Virus record (IMG/VR): IMGVR_UViG_3300044644_000765
Span: 1 to 33,697 of that record
Strand: one strand, 5' to 3'
Length of the DNA: 33,697 bases
Source: a virus
Lineage: Duplodnaviria; Caudoviricetes
The translations under genes were made by a program, and so were the position numbers. A model generated the notes under the pieces. The model was not told the origin of the DNA. It did no database searches and was given only the letters and a program-made list of their open reading frames with translations. Shown here one piece after another: positions 4,711 through 13,685 of the stretch (the stretch's first letter is position 1; each line of letters starts with the position of its first letter).

Positions 4711-4851
4711 ATGAAAGTATTTATACCAAATTACAACGACTGGTTTAATATCCTTCAAAGGTCTGGGAATTACGCCTTAATAGACTTTAATAAAAAGAAA
4801 ATAGTATTTAATATTTTAGGGTATGAAATACAAGAATTTAATAACCAATAA
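4711..4851 (+). CDS. Small hypothetical protein (46 aa, not in track)
   Basis: MKVFIPNYNDWFNILQRSG...; fills the gap in the operon. Confidence 0.5.
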   Translation: MKVFIPNYNDWFNILQRSGNYALIDFNKKKIVFNILGYEIQEFNNQ

Positions 4852-4862
4852 ATAAAAACAAA

Positions 4863-5084
4863 ATGAAAAAATTAGTATTAGTATTAGCGACAGCTTTAAT
4901 GTTGTTTAGCTGTGGGAAAGAAATAAACCACGCAAATCAATCATGCGGTTTAATCGTATCGGATAACGTAGAAGATTATTCTATAACAATTAGAAAGTCA
5001 AACGGAAGTTATGAAACAGTTACATTATATCCGGGTGATTGGGTGAATGCACACGTAGGAAGTGAAATTTGTGTAAATAAATAG
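4863..5084 (+). CDS. Lipoprotein
   Basis: Type II signal peptide MKKLVLVLATALMLFS-C. Confidence 0.75.
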   Translation: MKKLVLVLATALMLFSCGKEINHANQSCGLIVSDNVEDYSITIRKSNGSYETVTLYPGDWVNAHVGSEICVNK

Positions 5085-5101
5085 TTCTAATTAAAAAAAA
5101 T

Positions 5102-5362
5102 ATGAATATTTTAGAAAAAGCAAATGAAATTGTAAACCTTAGATCCGAAGAAAAGGATAGACAATACGGGGATTTTCATGAGTGTATGGAGCGTACTAGC
5201 AAATTGGCCTCTATTATGTCTAGCAAAGCTATAGACGTTAATGATTGCTATAATGTATTGATGGCATTAAAATTAGCCCGCCAATCAAATTGCCACAAAG
5301 AAGACAATTTACTTGATTTGGTAGCTTATGCCGGCTCGTTAAATGATTACTTAAATAAATAA
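5102..5362 (+). CDS. DUF6378-like protein (all-alpha nucleotide hydrolase-like)
   Basis: R...YGDF...MALKLAR...HKEDNLLDLVAY pattern. Confidence 0.7.
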   Translation: MNILEKANEIVNLRSEEKDRQYGDFHECMERTSKLASIMSSKAIDVNDCYNVLMALKLARQSNCHKEDNLLDLVAYAGSLNDYLNK

Positions 5363-5365
5363 ATT

Positions 5366-6145
5366 ATGAATACTTTTGAAAAAGAATATAGCAATATAAT
5401 TAAAAATTGTTGTAAAAAAGGTTACAAATTAGTTGGTAGAAATGGAAAAGTAAGACAACTAACAGCCGTGCAAGTAAGAGCAAATTTGGCTGATGGTTTC
5501 CCTATAGTGACAGGGAAACAAATTTTTCCTAAATCTGTTTTTATAGAGTTAGAATGGATGTTAAATGGCTTTACCAATATTAAATGGTTAAATGAAAGAG
5601 GTGTAAAAATATGGGATCAATGGGCGGATAAAGATGGAGATTTGGGACCTGTGTATGGCTACCAGATTTTAAACTTTGCGGGGATAAACCAATTAAATAA
5701 AATTTCTGAAGAATTTAGAAAAAACAAAAATAGTAGGAGGCTATTGGTTAGCATGTGGAATCCTTCCGACTTAGACAAAATGGCTTTACCTCCTTGTCAT
5801 TATGCTTTTCAATTTGTATTAGAAAATAATATAGCAGATATTGTTGTGAGTATGCGCTCTTTAGATTTATTTATAGGTTTGCCTTATGATATGGCCATGT
5901 ATGCAACTTTATTAGTCTCGTTTTGTAAAGAACATAATTTAACACCTAGAGAAATTATAATAAATGCTGCTAATGGACACATTTACGAGGAACATATTGG
6001 ATCCGCTGCTGTATATGCAAATAGATTAAAATTTAATTTACCAAAAGTTTTAAATATTCCGGCATTATCTGCTTATAAGGCAGATGGAATTGTTATAGAT
6101 GGCTATGAATACCATTCAAGATTAAAAGTAGACGTTAAAAAATAA
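5366..6145 (+). CDS. thyA: Thymidylate synthase A-fold enzyme with Asn->Asp specificity switch (probable dCMP methylase/hydroxymethylase)
   Basis: ELEW, IWDQWAD, GPVYG, SRR, PPCH, RSLD and HIY are conserved; GLPYD replaces canonical GLPFN. Confidence 0.9.
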   Translation: MNTFEKEYSNIIKNCCKKGYKLVGRNGKVRQLTAVQVRANLADGFPIVTGKQIFPKSVFIELEWMLNGFTNIKWLNERGVKIWDQWADKDGDLGPVYGYQILNFAGINQLNKISEEFRKNKNSRRLLVSMWNPSDLDKMALPPCHYAFQFVLENNIADIVVSMRSLDLFIGLPYDMAMYATLLVSFCKEHNLTPREIIINAANGHIYEEHIGSAAVYANRLKFNLPKVLNIPALSAYKADGIVIDGYEYHSRLKVDVKK

Positions 6146-6155
6146 AATTAATATT

Positions 6156-6458
6156 ATGAAAATGACAAATGAATTTCAGTCAATAAGAGACTGGGCAGAA
6201 GCAAAAGGAATATTTGAAAAAGGAGATGTAAAAACTCAATATGTAAAATTACAAGAAGAAGCCGGAAAATTAGCAAAAGCAATTATAAAAGATGATAAAG
6301 ATGAGTTTATAGACGCTTTGGGGGACTGCACTATAGTATTAGTTAACTTAGCCAAATTGGGTGGTTATAACTTAGAGGATTGCATAAACTCAGCATATAA
6401 CGTAATTGCTAAAAGAACAGGCAAAATGGTTAATGGTTCTTTTAAAAAAGATTTTTAA
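6156..6458 (+). CDS. MazG-like nucleotide pyrophosphohydrolase
   Basis: KLQEEAGKLAKAI...EFIDALGD...AYNVIAKRTGKMVNGSFKK. Confidence 0.85.
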   Translation: MKMTNEFQSIRDWAEAKGIFEKGDVKTQYVKLQEEAGKLAKAIIKDDKDEFIDALGDCTIVLVNLAKLGGYNLEDCINSAYNVIAKRTGKMVNGSFKKDF

Positions 6459-6488
6459 GTTTTATTAATTATAAAAAAATAAAAAGGT

Positions 6489-6496
6489 TATATTTG
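6489..6496 (+). promoter_or_regulatory. Bacteroidota -7 box for the replication operon
   Basis: TATATTTG in the intergenic gap; no clear -33 box. Confidence 0.6.
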
Positions 6497-6830: not shown

Positions 6831-7562
6831 ATGGCAGAAGATAAAAAAGGATTTTTATTGTATGCTGATCTAATACATACAATTGAAAAAATGCCAAATG
6901 ATAAGGCTGGTTTATTATTTAAACATATACTAAACTATGTAAATGATTTGAACCCTGTAACAGATGATTTGATAGTTGAATTGACTTTTGAACCAATCAA
7001 ACAACAGTTAAAACGTGATTTATTAAAATACAAAGAAACTAAAATTGACAAAAGCAATGGCGGTAAATTAGGCAATCTTAAAAGGTGGCATAAAGATTTA
7101 CACGATAAAGTTGTTAAAAATGAGTTAGATATAAATGAAGCGTTAGAAATCGCTAACAATCGCAAAACATTGCATACCGATACTATGCAATCGCAACCGA
7201 TCGGACAAATCGCTGTTAATGTAAATGATAATGTAAATGTAAATGATAAAGTAATAAATAATATTAAAGACCGCAAAACAAGTTTTGCTATTTCTTTAGA
7301 GCCTTATTTAGAATTTTATAATAGAGAAATGTTAAACAACTTTTATCTGTACTGGACTGAACATGGTGAAAAAGATAAAAAGATGAGGTATGAAAAAGAA
7401 AAATCATTTGATATAAAATTAAGGTTGCTGAATTGGAGTAAAAGAAGTGAAAGCTTTAAACAAAAAGAATTTAAAAAAGATGTTTTATTTGTAACACCAG
7501 AGGGAATAGAAATCACTGATAAGTTAGCATTACACGTTTACCAACAAACAGGAAAAGTATGA
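6831..7562 (+). CDS. Replication initiator / replisome organizer (DUF6291-like N-terminus)
   Basis: KKGFLLYAD..., GGKLGNLKRW, VNVNDNVNVND linker, FYLYWTE...RLLNW C-terminal domain; upstream of the helicase. Confidence 0.7.
   Translation: MAEDKKGFLLYADLIHTIEKMPNDKAGLLFKHILNYVNDLNPVTDDLIVELTFEPIKQQLKRDLLKYKETKIDKSNGGKLGNLKRWHKDLHDKVVKNELDINEALEIANNRKTLHTDTMQSQPIGQIAVNVNDNVNVNDKVINNIKDRKTSFAISLEPYLEFYNREMLNNFYLYWTEHGEKDKKMRYEKEKSFDIKLRLLNWSKRSESFKQKEFKKDVLFVTPEGIEITDKLALHVYQQTGKV
7148..7265. repeat. Iteron-like repeats and AT-rich tract, candidate origin
   Basis: AATCGC x4 (7148, 7158, 7189, 7208), palindrome ATTGCATA/TATGCAAT, then GTAAATGATA repeats. Confidence 0.5.
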
Positions 7563-8533
7563 TACTTAAAGACGGACATTCAACACAAACTATTTTAGAT
7601 TATAAAAATGGTTTGATGCCTAAAGGACTTGAATTAGGTATTTACTTTGATGAGTTTTTTGTGCATAAGCAAGGACAATTAAATTTTGCTTTAGGACATG
7701 ATAACGTAGGTAAAACTTATTTTATGGAGTGGTATTTTTTAGCACTAGCAACAAATCATAATTTAACTTTTACTTTGTTCATGGATGAAAATCCACCTTA
7801 TAAAGTGCTTAGAGATATGCTTAAAATGTATTTAGCAAAACCACTAGAGCAAATGAGTGAATTAGAAATTAAAAGAGGTTTAATTAAATTAGAGCATCAT
7901 TTTAAGTTTGTAGACAATACCAAAAGGTACACACCAGAAGAGCTTTTAAACGTATTTAATGAAACTAATACAGATGTTTATTTAATAGATCCTTTTAACG
8001 CTTTAAAATCCTCAATGACTTATGCAGGTAATTACGATGTATTAAACGAATTAAAAATGTTTTGTAAAAAAACAGGTAAAACTATTTACATAAACGCTCA
8101 TCCGTCAACTGCTGCAGGTCGTAAACAATCTGTATATCCAAAAAATCACACGTGGGAGGGTCATATAATGTTTCCTTTTAAGGATGATATTGAAGGAGGT
8201 AAACCATTTTCAAATAAAGCAGATGATTTTATAATTATCCACCGTTTTAATGGACATGAAAATTTAAGGTTTACAACACTAGTAGAAGTTAAAAAAATAA
8301 AAGATACTGATACAGGTGGAAGACAAACTCTAAATGAACAGCCTATTATGTTTGATTATAATTATGGTTATGGGTTTAAATGTGGTGGTAAAGACGTTAT
8401 TAAAAGACCTAAACACGTGCAAACAGATGCTTTTATACCAAAAGAAGAACCGATAAAACCAGCTAATCTAATGAATATAGGAAGGGAAGTAAACGAATTT
8501 AAACCACTAGAAGACAAAGATTGTCCTTTTTAA
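7559..8533 (+). CDS. DnaB/RecA-family replicative helicase
   Basis: Walker A GHDNVGKT, Walker B YLIDPFN, AHP, NKADDFIIIHR. Confidence 0.85.
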   Translation: MILKDGHSTQTILDYKNGLMPKGLELGIYFDEFFVHKQGQLNFALGHDNVGKTYFMEWYFLALATNHNLTFTLFMDENPPYKVLRDMLKMYLAKPLEQMSELEIKRGLIKLEHHFKFVDNTKRYTPEELLNVFNETNTDVYLIDPFNALKSSMTYAGNYDVLNELKMFCKKTGKTIYINAHPSTAAGRKQSVYPKNHTWEGHIMFPFKDDIEGGKPFSNKADDFIIIHRFNGHENLRFTTLVEVKKIKDTDTGGRQTLNEQPIMFDYNYGYGFKCGGKDVIKRPKHVQTDAFIPKEEPIKPANLMNIGREVNEFKPLEDKDCPF

Positions 8534-12157: not shown

Positions 12158-12471
12158 AAACAATAATAGCAGCAATGTGTTTCTTTTGCCTTTGTTCATT
12201 TAAAGCGTCGTATTACAGTGATGCATTCCACGGACGTAAAACAGCAAGCGGAGTAATATACGATAAGAACAAATTAACGTGTGCATCAAACACTCACAAG
12301 TTAGGGGCTAAGCTAAAAGTAACCAATACGCAAAACAATAAATCTGTAATAGTTACAGTAACTGATCGAGGTGGATTTAGTAAAGTTACCCTAGACTTAT
12401 CAAAGAAAGCATTTAGTACAATAGCTGAATTAAAAAAAGGAATAATTAACGTAACAATAAAAGAATTATGA
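12154..12471 (+). CDS. rlpA: RlpA-like double-psi beta-barrel lytic transglycosylase
   Basis: ASYY..FHGRKTASG, TCAS, VTVTDRGG, LDLSKKAF; short signal-like N-terminus. Confidence 0.85.
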   Translation: MKTIIAAMCFFCLCSFKASYYSDAFHGRKTASGVIYDKNKLTCASNTHKLGAKLKVTNTQNNKSVIVTVTDRGGFSKVTLDLSKKAFSTIAELKKGIINVTIKEL

Positions 12472-13109
12472 AAGTAGAATTAATTTCGGTATTTGGAAGT
12501 GATACTATGGTTGTTGACACAGCTCGTGTGTCGTATTCAAAAGAAGCATCTAATTATACAGAAGAACAAAATGAGAAGTTGATTAATTTCTTATCAAAGC
12601 ACAATCATTGGAGTCCATTCAGTCACCCTAAAGTACAATTTAGATTGCAAATCCCTATCTATGTTGAACGTCAATTGATTAAAACACAAGCAGGTGTCGA
12701 GTATAACTCGGTAAGTGGTCGTTATGTCGATTTTTCAGATACATATACAACTATTAAAGAGTGGCGTAAACAATCAAAAGATAGCAAACAAGGAAGTGAG
12801 GGTACATTTGATAATGAAATTAATGAAAGACTTAATTTGATTCAAAATGAAATAATTTCAACATGTAGAATTGCTTATGATTCAATGATTGCAGCTGGTG
12901 TAAGTAAAGAACAAGCGAGAACAATATTACCACTGAATTTAAACACCACTATGATATGGACTGGATCACTTTACTCATTCATAAGATTATGTAAGCAGAG
13001 GTTAAAAAAAGACGCACAACAAGAAACAAGGGAGGTAGTTGAATTAATGTTACAACAGGTTAAAGAAAATGGAAGTTTTGAACAATCATTAAAAGCATTT
13101 GAATTATGA
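12468..13109 (+). CDS. thyX: Flavin-dependent thymidylate synthase
   Basis: ARVSY, HWSPFSH, RQL...NSVSGRYV, GVSKEQARTILP, R...DAQQETR. Confidence 0.9.
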   Translation: MKVELISVFGSDTMVVDTARVSYSKEASNYTEEQNEKLINFLSKHNHWSPFSHPKVQFRLQIPIYVERQLIKTQAGVEYNSVSGRYVDFSDTYTTIKEWRKQSKDSKQGSEGTFDNEINERLNLIQNEIISTCRIAYDSMIAAGVSKEQARTILPLNLNTTMIWTGSLYSFIRLCKQRLKKDAQQETREVVELMLQQVKENGSFEQSLKAFEL

Positions 13110-13316: not shown

Positions 13317-13685
13317 ATGACAATAAGAGAATTACAAAAGAAAGTACACGAGAACGCAATGGATAAAGGATTTTGGGACACTCCACACAATTTCGGAACT
13401 GATTTAATGCTAGTGGTATCTGAATTAGGGGAATGTGTAGAAGCTCACAGGTGCGGTGAATTTGCAAACATGGAAGCCTTTAACGAGTTGATGGTAAATG
13501 AAACGTACGACTTTGAAACGTGCTTTAAACGTGAGATAAAAGATAGTGTTGAAGATGAGTTAGCGGATGCATTGATAAGGATCTTAGACATTGCAGAGGG
13601 TTACTCAATAGATCTTGAAAAACATATAGAGTTAAAAATGGAATACAATGAGAAACGCCAAAGATTACACGGGAAGAAGTACTAA
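13317..13685 (+). CDS. MazG-like NTP pyrophosphohydrolase
   Basis: KGFW, LVVSELGECVEAHR, EDELADALIRILD, KMEYN..R..LHGKKY. Confidence 0.85.
   Translation: MTIRELQKKVHENAMDKGFWDTPHNFGTDLMLVVSELGECVEAHRCGEFANMEAFNELMVNETYDFETCFKREIKDSVEDELADALIRILDIAEGYSIDLEKHIELKMEYNEKRQRLHGKKY

Follow-up and report, generated by a model that had tools for sequence, protein, structure and literature searches.

The window analysed here is the whole stretch of 33,697 nucleotides, which represents a circular, complete and AT-rich phage genome of 33.6 kb from lake water (127-nt end repeat; completeness 100%). Three consecutive genes of this genome encode a DUF6378 protein, a ThyA-fold enzyme and a MazG-like pyrophosphatase (Table 1). 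No cultured phage of this clade was found among 50,697 records, in which the best match reached 39.6%, and the host is probably a member of the Bacteroidota. A contig that binning groups with a Flavobacterium MAG holds the full cassette, binning being weak evidence, and of ten genome matches to the DUF6378 profile four are titled Bacteroidota and four Bacillota. No Flavobacterium phage with modified cytosine was found in the literature searched, which included few subscription papers. A sigma-70 scan and a repeat search around the cassette gave nothing above chance; the Bacteroidota element TAnnTTTG occurs at position 6489, but the genome holds 61 copies of it. A small family, PHROG 21441, has three paralogues in the genome (3021-3242, 13106-13303 and 14069-14338).

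Table 1. Features of the cassette and of related genes in the window
Feature	Position	Strand	Basis or remark
Accessory cassette; variable slot flanked by a Cor-like lipoprotein gene and replication genes	5101..6475	+	Comparison with L311 and L309
DUF6378 protein, 86 aa, all-helical, candidate modified-dNMP kinase	5102..5362	+	Pfam E 6e-12; model pLDDT 72
ThyA-fold enzyme, 259 aa, predicted dCMP C5-methyltransferase (5-methyl-dCMP synthase)	5366..6145	+	Thymidylat_synt E 5e-68
Asp175 codon GAT, motif GLPYD	5888..5890	+	Equivalent to E. coli ThyA Asn177 and T4 gp42 Asp179
Single-domain MazG-like all-alpha NTP pyrophosphatase, 100 aa, predicted dCTPase	6156..6458	+	MazG E 6e-6; PHROG 1992/715 E 5e-25
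Codon AAA, Lys38 at an EExxE motif position that is normally Glu	6267..6269	+	Glu in 77/78 family members
DUF6291 protein (putative replication initiator) and DnaB-like helicase	6831..8533	+	Outside the cassette
ThyX, intact ORF, independent accessory gene	12468..13109	+	TIGR02170 130 bits, cut-off 88
Second MazG-like pyrophosphatase	13317..13685	+	PHROG 9236 E 4e-35

The ThyA-fold enzyme scores above the TIGR03284 cut-off and retains all catalytic and phosphate-binding residues, in agreement with the initial annotation, which had described its catalytic motifs as intact. The residues kept include, in E. coli numbering, E58, W80, W83, Y94, R126, R127, L143, C146, H147, R166, S167, D169, H207 and Y209, and the C-terminus is full. 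Q165M, C168L, F176Y and N177D distinguish the enzyme from E. coli ThyA and are all invariant in the 28 loci of its clade, as are Leu141 (Leu143 in E. coli) and Asp167 (Asp169) in 28/28. The proposed equivalence of Asp175 with the uracil-selecting Asn177 holds in a gap-free alignment to E. coli ThyA (PDB 2TSC), and Asp175 likewise pairs gap-free with Asp179 of T4 gp42. An Asn codon (AAT) at 5888 is not what other contigs give: a contig from the independent lake run X2 covers positions 5404-5952 with 0 differences, and a contig from run X3 also matches the GAT codon, yet there the codon is only 5 nt from the contig end. Among the 120 matches listed, the closest 79 homologues include 77 with Asp at this position, the other two being truncated or frameshifted; of the next 41, one has Asp and 40 have Asn. 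A sequencing error at 5888 is ruled out by the independent contig together with these homologues.

Phage dCMP methyltransferases with Asp177 are already known experimentally, from Xp12 and from MetaGPA. By published rules, Asp177 goes with dCMP selection, an acidic residue at 143 with hydroxymethyl products and D169N with hydroxy products (PMC13326640), and the change from Asn to Asp shifts preference to dCMP in three studies cited by PMC8670742. The window enzyme has the fold, C146, R126/R127/R166/S167, E58, H207 and Y209 of a canonical ThyA and lacks only Asn177 of that set; it shares Asp177, a non-acidic residue 143 and Asp169 with the Xp12-type dCMP methyltransferases. The acidic 143 of the T4 gp42-type hydroxymethylases is absent (Leu141 versus Asp in T4), as is the D169N of the RB69 gp48-type 5-hydroxy-dCMP synthases (Asp167). 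Overall identity is about 39% to canonical ThyA versus 29% to the Xp12 enzyme, with which the motif DLFxGLPYD is nevertheless shared. The Xp12 enzyme is validated, having served as the positive control of an assay for 5mdC in E. coli in which five of seven metagenomic Asp-type enzymes made 5mdC and two of seven made none (bioRxiv 10.1101/2024.12.05.627091). Position 147 is described as a second site separating modified from unmodified contigs in MetaGPA (PMC8670742); His147 is kept here, and Xp12 has Pro and T4 has Thr. The enzyme is thus predicted from its residues to be dCMP-specific, as had been proposed, and of the two products left open, methyl or hydroxymethyl, methyl is favoured by the retention of Leu143, Asp169, Trp80 and Trp83, although the rules are correlations, given that His147 is kept here and that Xp12 aligns Asn at 143.

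The MazG-like enzyme, whose gene context suggests dCTP as its substrate, belongs to a family that is not diagnostic of dCTP removal, because the same family occurs in the absence of any TS gene in 10 of 49 related loci. The EExxE motif of such enzymes has a metal-binding role. Glu38 of this motif is present in 77 of 78 distinct sequences, and Lys38 is private to the population of this genome: position 6267 is A in run X1, the probable source, and G in three contigs of run X3 and in one of run X5; near-identical contigs of another lake run carry Glu38. The E38K change is probably damaging, and dCTP removal may therefore be weak, which favours a partial substitution here. The second MazG-like gene, which is also present in the cassette-less loci L309, L310, L311, L312, L313, L314 and L323, could buffer the change. 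The description of the synthase gene as flanked by nucleotide hydrolases is borne out on the MazG side only, DUF6378 having yielded no hydrolase evidence.

The order DUF6378-TS(Asp)-MazG is contiguous in 28/28 IMG/VR clade loci (55-89% identity), so that the three-gene module postulated initially is well founded as an arrangement of genes. Its partners distinguish Asp-type from Asn-type enzymes more widely. Among 144 classified TS genes (the window included, near-duplicates kept, and nine partial or second hits and two reference phages set aside), 57/66 Asp-type versus 0/78 Asn-type genes have a MazG-family neighbour within 600 bp, 35 versus 0 have DUF6378 within that distance, and 6 versus 0 a deaminase. 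Since members of this clade served to build the profiles, the informative figure for MazG is that outside it, where MazG adjoins 28 of 37 Asp-type genes. The suggested test of whether Asp variants co-occur with thyX and MazG gave such co-occurrence for MazG but not for thyX, which is found in 1/66 Asp-type loci, this genome itself, the loci being partial. On a quick tree of 79 retained rows, from which the filter had dropped most short T4-gp42-like enzymes, six Asp/Asn label changes are needed and at least two are forced by strong branches, so the pairing of MazG with Asp-type enzymes does not reflect one event. A search with DUF6378 alone gave 55 viral loci, many overlapping the clade loci, of which 51 have an Asp-type TS, one a truncated TS, three none at the threshold and none an Asn-type TS.

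The same cassette order also occurs with a 212-aa T4-gp42-like enzyme (Asp143) in the TS slot (L278:1152-2767 and L279:2399-4014), and enzymes of this Asp143 type are present in 3 of the 55 loci found with DUF6378; a third TS type is found in the cassettes of L301-L306. By these sequences the TS of the cassette is exchangeable, sister cassettes swapping methyl-type for hydroxymethyl-type enzymes. At L303:7163-9746, and also in L301, L302, L304 and L306, the gene for DUF6378 is followed in a row by those for a divergent Asp-type TS, for an amidotransferase of the asparagine-synthetase-like kind (439 aa in L303) and for MazG, an array that possibly serves a different cytosine modification. In L005, a locus of the clade, a deaminase gene adjoins the cassette. 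In 17/28 clade loci a fourth gene follows; it encodes 139 aa directly 3′ of MazG (L001:9420-9839 and 16 other loci) and has no Pfam or PHROG match, and its structural model (pLDDT 80) matches almost only PD-(D/E)xK nucleases, best DpnI (E 5e-3). By its modelled fold the protein may cut unmodified DNA; the gene is absent from the genome in the window. Elsewhere, a PF18909 (dGTP_diPhyd_N) domain occupies the slot of DUF6378 upstream of an Asp-type TS (L047:1555-1845), and a conserved family of about 90 aa lies just upstream of the Asp-type TS in 60-kb marine phages in which no kinase was recognised (L087:723-1013 and 21 other loci). This marine family has no profile relationship to DUF6378, Nmad1 or gp1.7 and was rejected as a relative of any of them.

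Comparison with related genomes provides an empty site. L311 aligns to window positions 4831-5100 and resumes at 6476, in blocks 72-96% identical; the edges of the cassette are uncertain by a few bases because they lie in A-runs. In L309 the slot is taken by an unrelated ORF of 98 aa, and no TS gene was found in 49 loci retrieved via the window helicase, 36 of which include at least 2.5 kb upstream. Judged from these alignments, the 1.37-kb three-gene cassette is evidently a mobile accessory insertion. Family searches agree with the initial remark that no phage polymerase, kinase or glycosyltransferase is recognisable: the complete genome gave no match to DNA polymerase A (PF00476), T4-type dNMP kinase (PF21448) or thymidylate kinase families, and its 61 ORFs none to deaminase (PF00383) or glycosyltransferase families, nor to carbamoyltransferase families or phage DHFR. 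The DUF6291 protein and DnaB-like helicase provide a context that shows reliance on the host polymerase.

The genome carries a signature in its restriction sites. The backbone avoids all-G/C palindromes (7 observed versus 66 expected), and the cassette, which makes up 4.1% of the genome, holds 6 of the 13 CCGG/GGCC/GCGC/CGCG sites (p 6e-6), CGCG itself being absent from all 33.6 kb. In the flanks of dereplicated loci, the ratio of observed to expected all-G/C palindromes is 0.61 in 21 cassette-bearing versus 0.31 in 22 cassette-less loci (p 0.002), and 0.53 versus 0.31 in a GC-matched subset (p 0.049), in a comparison that ignores relatedness among loci; mixed palindromes do not differ (0.76 versus 0.72). 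The cassette-bearing loci L001 and L277 are exceptions that still strongly avoid all-G/C palindromes. Relief from restriction would be expected to produce such weaker avoidance, and DNA of Xp12 is reported to resist about 90% of type II enzymes (PMC7653180). Together with reliance on a foreign polymerase, the palindrome signature supports, at the level of probability, the suggestion of a host-dependent system for restriction evasion. For GATC the ratio is 0.80 here versus 0.45 in related loci with the cassette and 0.36 in those lacking it. No C-to-T excess was found on the branch of this genome (18/110 versus 18/133), and no CpG depletion in the genome.

A separate thyX was correctly placed at 12468, but its proposed role as the supplier of dTMP within the module is not supported, for ThyX is absent from 4/4 other complete cassette genomes. 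It occurs in 5 of 49 cassette-less loci and is missing from the close relative L311; on this distribution it is an independent accessory gene, and its coupling to the cassette was rejected. Its motif reads KTQ, shared with L325, and KHQ in relatives; the usual motif in solved structures is RHR.

The DUF6378 protein is the least understood of the three. Across 151 sequences, residues Y22, G23, K57, R60, D68, D72 and Y76 are conserved in 96% or more. The hydrolase function first assigned to it is not supported; profile comparison points instead to a remote relative of Nmad1/DUF1599: its profile matches a phage Nmad1-like family at 86% (E 5e-6), this family links to the DUF1599 profile at 94%, and the direct link from DUF6378 to cellular DUF1599 is 0.7%, PF07659 (DUF1599) having no match in this genome. 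The Nmad domains were reportedly defined in a paper by Iyer of 2013. The Nmad1-like family includes the C-terminal half of QNN97215, the pyrophosphatase beside the Xp12-type enzyme (E 4e-37), and among 92 scanned relatives there are fusions to PRA-PH/MazG (3), dUTPase (2) and a UDG-like domain (1). The profile link to the MazG family is 2%. Structure searches were uninformative: PDB-wide they gave generic helical matches only (best Z 8.0), the best 50 in BFVD are DUF6378, unnamed or otherwise-named proteins that offer no functional lead, and the Atlas returned DUF6378 clusters only. Neither Pfam nor the fold supports the PHROG label "phosphofructokinase", and homology to T7 gp1.7/DUF3310 was rejected at 0.1-0.25% in three profile comparisons. 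Twelve TS loci (L029-L045) have domains of the T7 gp1.7 type near canonical Asn-type TS genes, and in two cassette-less loci (L327 and L330) such domains adjoin MazG-family genes. No established function for DUF6378 or DUF1599 was found in the literature searched, mostly outside subscription journals.

A lead arises from the kinase step. No DNMK or thymidylate kinase match was found in five complete cassette genomes, and no kinase was recognised among 42 scanned ORFs of Xp12; the 5mdC assay in E. coli needed T4 gp1 (bioRxiv 10.1101/2024.12.05.627091). Among 14 control genomes, B. thetaiotaomicron alone has no thymidylate kinase and alone has DUF1599. In a set of 121 genomes, a strong thymidylate kinase match is lacking in 27 of 28 with a two-domain DUF1599 protein versus 2 of 93 others, an exclusion weakened by the probable membership of the DUF1599 genomes in a single clade, for which any clade marker would give the same picture; all five weak thymidylate kinase matches that were checked are deoxynucleoside kinases. 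The cellular two-domain gene usually lies between folP and a MauE/DoxX gene, folP adjoining it in six of nine loci examined (L357-L365), while in two more the matching ORF lay outside the scan. Archaeal viruses are described as having Nmad1 next to dUTPase and ThyX. No DNMK, DUF1599 or DUF6378 was recognisable in five complete marine phages of the Asp type, in a search whose DUF6378 part lacked a positive control, and the test of mutual exclusion in these phages failed to discriminate. No account of a Bacteroidetes thymidylate kinase was found in the literature covered, again with few subscription papers. DUF6378 and Nmad1/DUF1599 proteins might then be P-loop-free dNMP kinases, the phage copy acting on 5-methyl-dCMP and the cellular two-domain copy being the missing thymidylate kinase of the Bacteroidota, in which case the 1.4-kb cassette would suffice together with the host replisome; we regard this proposal as tentative and more doubtful than not.

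The residues of the ThyA-fold enzyme, the gene order, the empty site and the absence of any recognisable polymerase, kinase or deaminase from the genome are best explained by a cassette that would build 5-methylcytosine into phage DNA via the host polymerase and so shield it from restriction, a reading to which we assign a probability of about 0.66. Against it count the retained His147, the greater similarity to canonical ThyA than to Xp12, the two of seven Asp-type enzymes that made no 5mdC, the E38K change, the occurrence of the MazG family in loci lacking a TS, the missing C-to-T excess, the exceptions L001 and L277 in a palindrome comparison uncorrected for relatedness, and the five marine phages in which no kinase, DUF1599 or DUF6378 was recognisable. 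We infer its catalytic steps as follows. The MazG-like enzyme would convert dCTP to dCMP, which the ThyA-fold enzyme, as predicted from its residues, would methylate to 5-methyl-dCMP; the modified nucleotide would be phosphorylated by the host or, conceivably, by the DUF6378 protein; host polymerase would insert 5-methylcytosine into phage DNA; and the modified base would likely protect that DNA from restriction enzymes. Here such substitution is probably either partial or of recent date, given that the MazG-like enzyme has lost a conserved Glu, that the nuclease gene of many sister cassettes is absent and the backbone still avoids G/C palindromes.

The same enzyme chemistry could end elsewhere. 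A host deaminase might turn 5-methyl-dCMP into thymidylate, as the initial annotation had allowed, so that the cassette would be a route to dTTP and leave little 5-methylcytosine in DNA. In favour, Xp12-type phages are described as deriving dT from 5mdCTP (bioRxiv 10.1101/2024.12.05.627091), ThyX is missing from the four other complete cassette genomes, L005 places a deaminase beside the cassette, the control genome of B. thetaiotaomicron has PF00383, and the genome in the window is AT-rich. We nevertheless consider it unlikely: no phage deaminase was found in four complete cassette genomes or here, the T4-gp42-like enzymes that hold the slot elsewhere would not give dTMP, and the nuclease gene and the relaxed palindrome avoidance would be left unexplained in a phage that already has ThyX. 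A different doubt concerns this genome alone, for the cassette may work in the clade and be decaying or silent here, with the DNA essentially unmodified. The private E38K change, the absent nuclease gene, the lack of a mutational signature and the strong avoidance of G/C palindromes by the backbone all fit such decay. Still, the three ORFs are full length, the TS is unchanged at catalytic positions, near-identical contigs from another lake run have Glu38, and the backbone is accounted for just as well by a recent arrival of the cassette; we take decay to be quite unlikely.

The remaining alternatives concern the enzyme. It could act on dCMP and yield 5-hydroxymethyl or another C5 product, in keeping with the Asp143 gp42-type enzymes of sister cassettes, the lack of a phage DHFR match and the correlative nature of the Leu143 rule, given Asn in Xp12; we judge this very improbable in view of the retained Leu143, Trp80, Trp83, Asp169 and full C-terminus and of the absence of glycosyl- and carbamoyltransferase matches. 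It could instead be an Asp-tolerant thymidylate synthase that methylates dUMP, the MazG-like enzyme then being a dUTPase. The score above the TIGR03284 cut-off, the retained His147, the existence of MazG-family genes in loci that have no TS and the pairing of Nmad1 in archaeal viruses with dUTPase and ThyX are compatible with this, but the shift of preference to dCMP in the three cited studies (PMC8670742) and the absence of the partner genes from all 78 Asn-type loci make it highly unlikely.

If the cassette works as a source of 5-methylcytosine, modified DNA would be a trait that common phages of lakes and coasts gain and lose with ease, and the cassette would be a compact tool for producing 5mC DNA in vivo; the cassette-less relative is a natural control for a 1.4-kb swappable insert in a host-polymerase-dependent phage of 33.6 kb. 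If the kinase proposal is true, DUF6378/DUF1599 would be a new enzyme family and would fill the thymidylate-kinase gap of DUF1599-bearing genomes. Descriptions of cytosine substitution across a whole genome usually concern phages that encode a polymerase and a kinase themselves. Both the class of enzyme and what it serves are known already; in the literature searched, no description was found of the cassette as a swappable insertion in polymerase-less phages with an empty-site control, of the palindrome signature or of the DUF6378-Nmad1-kinase lead.

Among known proteins, Nmad1/DUF1599 (PF07659) resembles DUF6378 in being a helical domain with [DQ]YG, KxxR and DxxxY motifs, to which a phage family is intermediate, but the direct match is 0.7% and PF07659 is not matched in the window. 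T7 gp1.7/DUF3310, a small helical P-loop-free domain implicated in nucleotide kinase activity (PMC10700055), is a precedent for P-loop-free kinase chemistry, though it has no profile similarity to DUF6378. In T4, gp56 is the dCTPase and gp1 the kinase, and endonucleases II and IV complete the system. The cassette shares with T4 the logic of synthase, dCTPase and nuclease and the equivalence of gp42 Asp179 with Asp175; gp42, however, has Asp143 and Thr147 and makes hydroxymethyl products, which are glucosylated, and T4 has its own polymerase and P-loop kinase, whereas the window has no PF21448. The Asp177 TS homologues of MetaGPA have the same residue as the window enzyme and are enriched in modified-cytosine contigs (PMC8670742; bioRxiv 10.1101/2024.12.05.627091), but the set was picked for a neighbouring deaminase and often has DNA polymerase A, both of which the window clade mostly lacks; the MetaGPA sequence sets could contain members of this clade. 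The closest parallel is the Xp12/PaMx74 module (MT664984, QNN97214 and QNN97215), which has a ThyA fold with Asp177 and GLPYD and an adjacent all-alpha pyrophosphatase, and which would have the same three functions, since the C-terminal half of QNN97215 belongs to the Nmad1-like family to which DUF6378 is remotely linked. Identity to the Xp12 enzyme is only 29%, and His147 is kept here. Xp12 has a 64-kb genome with a deaminase, DHFR and DNA polymerase I, none of which was matched in the 33.6-kb window genome, and the module here, unlike that of Xp12, is an accessory insertion.
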